In this document: piece by piece, positions 30,968 through 31,405 of the stretch
How the letters are laid out: the number at the start of each line of letters is the position of its first letter
Numbering within the stretch: the first letter of the stretch is position 1
DNA from: Escherichia coli
GTDB taxonomy: Bacteria; Pseudomonadota; Gammaproteobacteria; Enterobacterales; Enterobacteriaceae
DNA: 64,000 nt
Assembly (NCBI RefSeq): GCF_050920415.1
Contig: NZ_CP169309.1
Direction: 5' to 3' (one strand)
Notes under the pieces: model-generated
The model's input: the letters and a program-made list of their open reading frames with translations, nothing else
What the model was told of the DNA's origin: nothing
Database searches by the model: none
Translations under genes and position numbers: made by a program

Positions 30968-31405
30968 AACGTTTCCTTAGCAATAATACGGCTCAGAGAT
31001 AACGAAATCATTCATGAGCAATATGAATTATGATTAATAATTCGTAAAAGGAATGTATTTTATAATGACTCTTCCTGTTTTTAGTCAAAGTTGTCATTAT
31101 AATTAATATTATACTAATTAATTTCCAGAAAACTTCTGTAACCAGTAAAAACACTGCTCCGACAACCTAACATAATGTAAATTAACACTATTAACTGGAA
31201 ATTATCATCTTTAAGTTTACATAAATTCCGTGATGCATATCGCAAAGCGGTGATAAATATATATCCTGTGAAAATGAACTTTGCACCTCCACAGAATATG
31301 TTAACGTAATATCATATGGTAGCAGAAGGCTATTAATTAATTATCCGTATTATAAATCTTGTCTGACGCCTTTCTGTTTCTGCTGTATTACGGGAAGGAT
31401 TACCT
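30968..31405. promoter_or_regulatory. AT-rich divergent intergenic region between vgrG and tssF (putative bidirectional promoters)
   Basis: 438 bp with long A/T tracts between divergent operons. Confidence 0.4.

Follow-up and report, generated by a model that had tools for sequence, protein, structure and literature searches.

The 64-kb stretch of Escherichia coli DNA analysed here (the window) contains, at positions 30968–31405, a gap of exactly 438 bp between two divergently oriented T6SS genes. On its left lies vgrG (28895–30967, minus strand), which encodes a protein of 690 aa with the Pfam domains Phage_GPD, Phage_base_V and Gp5_trimer_C and is the first gene of a leftward spike/effector operon. 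On its right, tssF (31406–33253, plus strand) encodes the baseplate wedge subunit (615 aa; full-length Pfam T6SS_TssF match, 7–607/608) and opens a rightward unit completed by tssG (33217–34281, plus strand; 354 aa, Pfam T6SS_TssG), the two genes sharing 37 nt where they meet. The open reading frames end and begin precisely at the limits that the first-pass annotation had assigned to the gap, and both start codons agree with the N-termini seen in relatives and are preceded by AAGGA motifs resembling an RBS.

Both units are carried by a 16.1-kb integrative island (23592–39744) placed between xapR and the tRNA-Lys gene lysV and delimited by a 19-bp direct repeat, TTGGTGGGTCGTGCAGGAT, whose copies occupy 23592–23610 and 39726–39744, the latter being the 3′ end of the tRNA-Lys. 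Two integrase genes are present, and the features of a tRNA-integrated island are all found here, namely a tyrosine integrase beside the tRNA gene, repeats of the tRNA 3′ end and a patchy distribution. The island is present in one of 5,426 complete E. coli genomes (distant-mode search included), and the exact TssF appears on ~90 draft-assembly contigs. The horizontal origin first proposed for the gap is thus borne out by its location inside this element. At the left end of the island (23593–23780) an RtT-like element (Rfam, 51.6 bits) has on either side a terminator-like hairpin with an att core, the second copy of which, near 23760, matches the core at 18 of 19 positions; this duplication suggests tandem att remnants.

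The leftward cargo block downstream of vgrG (23928–28898, minus strand) comprises a DUF4123 adaptor (28323–28898, minus strand), four proteins of 444, 341, 309 and 237 aa (24224–28306) and a PAAR protein (23928–24227, minus strand). None of the four gave a Pfam match at E ≤ 0.1, and they are probably an effector with its immunity/accessory proteins. The island backbone (34376–39461) begins directly 3′ of tssG, on the same strand, with an isrK-like RNA (34376–34454; 53.2 bits) and a C4-like antisense RNA (34476–34565; 68.1 bits), a prophage/P4-like arrangement, and contains further on an EFASI RNA (36034–36162, plus strand; 99.2 bits), all three at the Rfam gathering level. Transcriptional read-through from tssF-tssG into this isrK/C4/EFASI backbone is conceivable. 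The remaining backbone genes are a 153-aa ORF without Pfam match, followed by an HTH_35 gene (35075–35329), an Integrase_1 gene (36220–37104) and a P4-type integrase gene (38250–39461, minus strand). Two stretches of the island are free of annotated genes, one at 35330–36219 (890 bp, 54% GC), which holds the EFASI RNA, and one at 37105–38249 (1,145 bp, 38.5% GC), which separates the two integrase genes.

No other T6SS core gene was seen in the island or in the rest of the window, which is core E. coli. Compared with a complete cluster of 13 core genes (tssA–M), the island holds vgrG (tssI), tssF, tssG and PAAR. In the claim that the gap serves both operons, vgrG and tssF had been correctly named, but there is no T6SS cluster behind them and the rightward unit consists of tssF-tssG only. 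A complete canonical T6SS does exist in the host, strain MFDS1022581, to whose chromosome (NZ_CP169399.1) the window is 100% identical; this system occupies the yafV-aspV site (4.105–4.151 Mb; locus L029) at a distance of 2.6 Mb, and the island TssF, TssG and VgrG are 49%, 55% and 52–61% identical to the resident copies. This main system has three vgrG genes, one of them interrupted by IS21, and its effector arm carries a group II intron and IS elements, including an IS2 (L029, 24934–26162); another IS2 lies in the window at 16911–18139, between yfeH and yfeR.

The same arrangement could be recognised in other genomes. Relatives of the island TssF at 56–66% identity form a clade apart from the canonical enterobacterial TssFs (≤50%), and in every member that could be placed a gap separates the cargo and vgrG, on one strand, from tssF on the opposite strand, in most cases together with tssG. 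This module is not accompanied by further T6SS core genes in any placeable member. The loci taken in were the window (23592–39744), L002–L024 and L030–L033, and the hosts are E. coli, Escherichia sp., Salmonella enterica subsp. salamae and houtenae, Citrobacter, Enterobacter and Enterobacteriaceae from gut metagenomes. In total the module is found in ten lineages and at four or more chromosomal sites, often with integrases close by, and its cargo varies between Rhs and adaptor/PAAR sets. It is carried by three of ~100,000 species-representative genomes, and no member of its TssF clade was found among the PLSDB plasmids.

Across subclades the three proteins co-diverge, with amino-acid identities of 60–67% for VgrG, 62–66% for TssF and 70–75% for TssG. 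The dN/dS ratios range from 0.06 to 0.26 in all seven comparisons, which reach saturated dS (0.06–0.22 for vgrG, 0.14–0.26 for tssF and 0.07–0.18 for tssG), and no internal stop was found in the module genes of the eight lineages tested. The three genes are under purifying selection and are therefore expressed in some condition. Likewise, the presence of one common junction in ten lineages implies a single origin, followed by long maintenance and by spread to at least four sites. TssF is reported to be unstable without TssG. Nevertheless, tssF is kept more consistently than tssG across lineages: in an Enterobacter lineage and one other lineage (L013, 10001–11860; L015, 10001–11857) tssF alone stands by vgrG, and among the S. 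houtenae loci the tssG of L010 (11824–12881) is in two pieces and that of L011 was not called.

A closer inspection of the base composition showed that the gap, with 30.6% GC, departs strongly from both the whole window (50.4%) and its flanking genes (54–56%). Its A+T content of 69.4% (49.6% in the window) places it in the lowest 0.3% of 438-bp intervals by GC: 177 of 63,563 such intervals are more AT-rich, all of them in the island cargo at ~25.3–26.0 kb, where GC falls to 28.8%, the AT-richest part of the window. The gap is thus the second most AT-rich 438-bp stretch of the window and the AT-richest among its annotated intergenic gaps with a length of 150 bp or more (n = 14), so that the extreme A/T-richness noted at first inspection stands; native E. 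coli gaps are nearly as AT-rich, such as yfeN-xapA (32.3% GC) and nupC-mntH (34.6% GC). The phased A/T tracts described in the same annotation could not be substantiated. The ~10.3-bp AA/TT periodicity is equalled by 8% of Markov shuffles and is not significant, and homopolymeric A/T runs of four or more (n = 6) are not enriched for this composition. The AT-richness consists instead of mixed W-tracts rich in TpA, with an observed/expected ratio of 1.03 for TpA (0.73 window-wide) and of 0.98 for AA/TT (1.21 window-wide). TpA steps, according to the structural literature, also favour H-NS. The high-affinity H-NS motif (TCGATAAATT-like) is not enriched in the gap, where a single match with two mismatches was seen and 77% of shuffles did as well.

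All ten module lineages keep a gap of 220–438 bp with 28.4–34.2% GC, flanked by genes of 49–61% GC. The ten gaps are barely alignable (mean column identity 53%); composition is maintained across lineages, whereas sequence is not. Within E. coli two allele classes could be distinguished, the window type (window, L002–L004, L030 and L032, the last two 98–100% identical to the window) and the L018 type. Most gene sequence is 96–100% identical between the classes, but the centre of the gap shows ~27% mismatch. A specially fast-evolving gap centre was considered and rejected, as dS is 0.41 in tssF (nt 1–150) and 0.56 in vgrG (nt 151–300). Since the synonymous divergence next to it is equally high, the gap and its flanks form a recombination mosaic. 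In the comparison of 30668–31555 with L018, dS drops to 0–0.09 just beyond the high-dS segments and is 0.06 in vgrG nt 1–150. Three sub-blocks of the gap (30968–30992, 31093–31142 and 31293–31405) are 88–100% identical between the classes, above the local neutral background, and the footprints of the subclades show promoter-like elements facing each gene. The invariant block was also sought as an exact pattern in viral and metagenome contigs, with no match.

The first of these sub-blocks, 92% identical to the L018 allele, contains an RBS-like AAGGAA (30973–30978, minus strand) 5 nt before the vgrG ATG. The second (31093–31142, minus strand; 88–92% identical, against ~70% in its neighbours) carries two perfect minus-strand TATAAT hexamers, running from 31113 to 31108 and from 31101 to 31096, with no −35 element. 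These hexamers are candidates for the vgrG promoter, which would give a 5′ UTR of ~120–135 nt; in subclade D a conserved TTGACA-N16-GATGAT implies a vgrG leader of similar length (~115–120 nt). The third sub-block (31293–31405, plus strand; 95–100% identical between allele classes) is a candidate promoter and 5′ UTR for tssF. It includes the −10-like TATTATAAAT (31348–31357, plus strand), which together with the AT-rich stretch upstream of it could constitute the tssF promoter, and the tssF RBS AAGGA (31395–31399, plus strand). Subclades C and D show a similar (T)ATAAA(T) block 30–60 nt ahead of the tssF start codon.

No strong sigma-70 promoter was found in the gap, the top PWM scores (7.1 and 6.6) being below the mean top score of shuffled sequences (8.3), and a consensus scan returned 2 sites for 2.1 expected by chance. 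When the PWM was run over the ten gaps only L010 exceeded its shuffles, and no position was common to all lineages. A sigma-54 element (GG-N10-GC, −24/−12) had no candidate on either strand. In the Fur/Dam-controlled type of T6SS promoter, that of EAEC sci-1, a Fur box overlaps GATC sites; the gap has no GATC site, and its best Fur-box match (13 of 19 positions, shuffle P 0.35) is not significant.

Promoters for vgrG and tssF are nonetheless almost certainly located in the gap, because it is the sole DNA upstream of either gene and both genes are under purifying selection; the divergent promoters proposed for it from the start follow in the same way from gene orientation. That they look weak by sequence points to dependence on anti-silencing or on an activator, and the want of a good −35 suggests the latter in particular. 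Control could then lie mainly with a specific regulator, H-NS being secondary, a reading that we regard as rather unlikely. Its candidates are CRP-cAMP and the HTH_35 protein of the island.

For CRP, a site of the form cGTGA-N6-TCgCA (31229–31244) has two core mismatches and is centred 169.5 bp before the tssF ATG. By itself this site is not significant (shuffle P 0.18), but the orthologous site in L018, with one mismatch, reaches P 0.015 at the same distance, so that a CRP-like site is kept in both E. coli allele classes, and in subclade B the core is perfect, TGTGATAATTATCACA, and forms part of a conserved stretch of 50 nt (P 0.001). Against this, the CRP scan found no such site in the gaps of subclades C and D, and a centre 169.5 bp from the ATG misfits class I or class II placement for any predicted −10. 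Perfect or near-perfect cores occur 127.5 bp before the tssF ATG in L005 (9866–9881) and L022 (4480–4495), and the conserved 50-nt block of the Citrobacter/gut-metagenome subclade contains the CRP core and a TATAAT together.

The HTH_35 protein would act at a 10-bp perfect inverted repeat, TAATTTCCAG (31119–31128) and CTGGAAATTA (31195–31204), with arms 66 bp apart. In its favour, the four alleles of subclade A agree fully in both arms while the spacer between them diverges. However, no regulator of this repeat is known, and the HTH_35 gene, together with the 153-aa gene, also occurs next to integrases away from the module (L012), for which reason it looks like part of the island backbone.

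The length of the gap might also be explained by an unannotated element, be it an sRNA, a gene for a small protein or a folded 5′ leader, which we consider very improbable. Several inverted repeats are present, and some 150-nt segments fold better than their shuffles, with z-scores of −3.3 (30968–31117, plus strand) and −2.9 (31256–31405, minus strand). These signals trace to the inverted repeats, but the main hairpin arms are not conserved in L018; an imperfect terminator-like hairpin at 31261–31299 (minus strand) is poorly conserved there as well. Rfam searches of the gap at E ≤ 10 returned only two chance matches to eukaryotic miRNAs, no ATG-started ORF of at least 25 aa survives in the L018 allele or is common across lineages, and the length itself varies between lineages, as given above.

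The canonical relatives of the module show the layout rhs←vgrG←hcp / gap / tssB-tssC-tssE-tssF-tssG-…-tssM, from which the module looks like the same arrangement minus hcp, tssBCE and all genes past tssG. Their hcp/tssB gaps measure 624–701 bp and have 28.7–32.7% GC (701 bp and 32.4% in the host's own system, 697 bp and 32.7% in L026). By position, the vgrG/tssF gap is most simply derived from such an ancestral hcp/tssB control region. Similarity in sequence was not detected: the best blastn bit score against canonical hcp/tssB regions was 29.7, with 32–37 for shuffled controls, nothing above shuffled controls was seen against vgrG/hcp intergenic regions, and no words beyond chance are shared with the hcp/tssB region of the host.

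The canonical and orphan layouts would equally fit a gap that is the neutral scar of an hcp-tssB-tssC-tssE deletion, in a module that is a silent, decaying remnant. T6SS remnants are common in Enterobacteriaceae (PMC10763514), tssG is split, uncalled or lost in some lineages, and the gap has no strong promoter. We nevertheless hold this to be improbable, given the low dN/dS of the seven comparisons and the intact reading frames, the shared junction in all ten lineages with its long maintenance, and the conservation of RBSs and sub-blocks beyond the neutral rate of their surroundings. The module resembles the remnants of Enterobacter and Klebsiella (PMC10763514, PMC7108748) in being a core-gene subset whose layout is consistent with deletion; unlike them, its ten lineages, at four or more chromosomal sites, have one three-gene core in common, with dN/dS of 0.06–0.26, a pattern that is not one of independent decay.

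The closest parallel for the gap is the hcp3/tssB (z0264/z0265) region of EHEC O157:H7. According to PMC13141884 (with reference to Kim et al. 2022 and Wan et al. 2016), this region drives transcription in both directions from several TSSs, and H-NS binds and represses it; in an hns mutant the repression is relieved. Both regions lie on horizontally acquired DNA between the first genes of two divergent T6SS units of one T6SS lineage (TssF ~49–50% identical), with spike/effector genes to the left and structural genes to the right, and both are strongly AT-rich, the canonical copies of the host and L026 lying between genes of 51–55% GC. They differ in that vgrG and tssF, not hcp and tssB, flank the present gap, which is shorter and has no detectable sequence similarity. 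A second parallel comes from SPI-6 of Salmonella Typhimurium, where H-NS binds the vgrG and clpV promoters in EMSA, ITC and ChIP-qPCR (PMC10657408) and silences them (Brunet et al. 2015, as cited in PMC7108748). This is likewise an enterobacterial vgrG promoter on an acquired island, but in another cluster type and layout, and H-NS binding is experimental there and predicted here. More broadly, H-NS is regarded as a general silencer of T6SS (PMC7108748).

On these grounds of logic and analogy, we favour with moderate confidence the reading that the gap is a shared, H-NS-silenced bidirectional promoter region of two back-to-back island units. The leftward unit (vgrG, the DUF4123 adaptor, the effector/immunity candidates and PAAR) and the rightward unit (tssF-tssG) would both be driven from it, by weak sigma-70 promoters in the conserved sub-blocks (TATAAT at ~31096–31113 for vgrG and TATTATAAAT at ~31348–31357 for tssF). 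The TpA-rich DNA, with 69% A+T, would nucleate H-NS (and StpA), and by covering both promoters these proteins would hold the module silent until it is released by an anti-silencing signal or an activator, CRP being a weak activator candidate in this lineage. The gap would have reached its present position after the loss of hcp and tssB-tssC-tssE from the ancestral control region. The AT-rich patch is short (~450–500 bp) and bordered by GC-richer genes; as H-NS ChIP studies indicate, such shortness may limit filament spreading and the strength of silencing.

The island also resembles orphan or auxiliary vgrG modules (PMC13098142, PMC13367176), in which vgrG, a DUF4123 adaptor, effector candidates and PAAR lie off the main cluster, on a mobile element and in a host with a complete T6SS. 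Unlike these, it adds full-length structural tssF and tssG genes under selection, and is thus a variant, rather than an ordinary example, of the orphan vgrG effector module. VgrG binds TssF-TssG only once these two have assembled (PMC4604203), and the trio is exactly the baseplate hub plus the sub-complex that the hub must bind. Tentatively, and with clearly less confidence than we place in the silenced promoter region, the gap may control a mobile T6SS kit of hub plus matching wedge, in which a diverged VgrG is accompanied by a TssF-TssG pair of its own. Such a kit would allow the resident T6SS, in which TssF, TssG and VgrG are only 49–61% identical to those of the island, to incorporate the foreign spike together with its effectors, and the shared AT-rich gap would ensure that hub and wedge are produced jointly, only once silencing is lifted. 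In the one host checked, the module occurs together with a complete T6SS.

The gap itself is probably ordinary, one more AT-rich, H-NS-silenced bidirectional promoter on acquired DNA. The surrounding module is moderately novel, no description of a mobile vgrG + tssF + tssG unit having been found in the searchable literature, and this context matters more than the gap. If the module is a functional plug-in, the exchange of effectors between strains can both need and bring compatible baseplate parts, and the gap would be the switch that co-expresses vgrG, tssF and tssG. Such a role would be relevant to the diversification of T6SS arsenals and to the limits of VgrG compatibility between systems.
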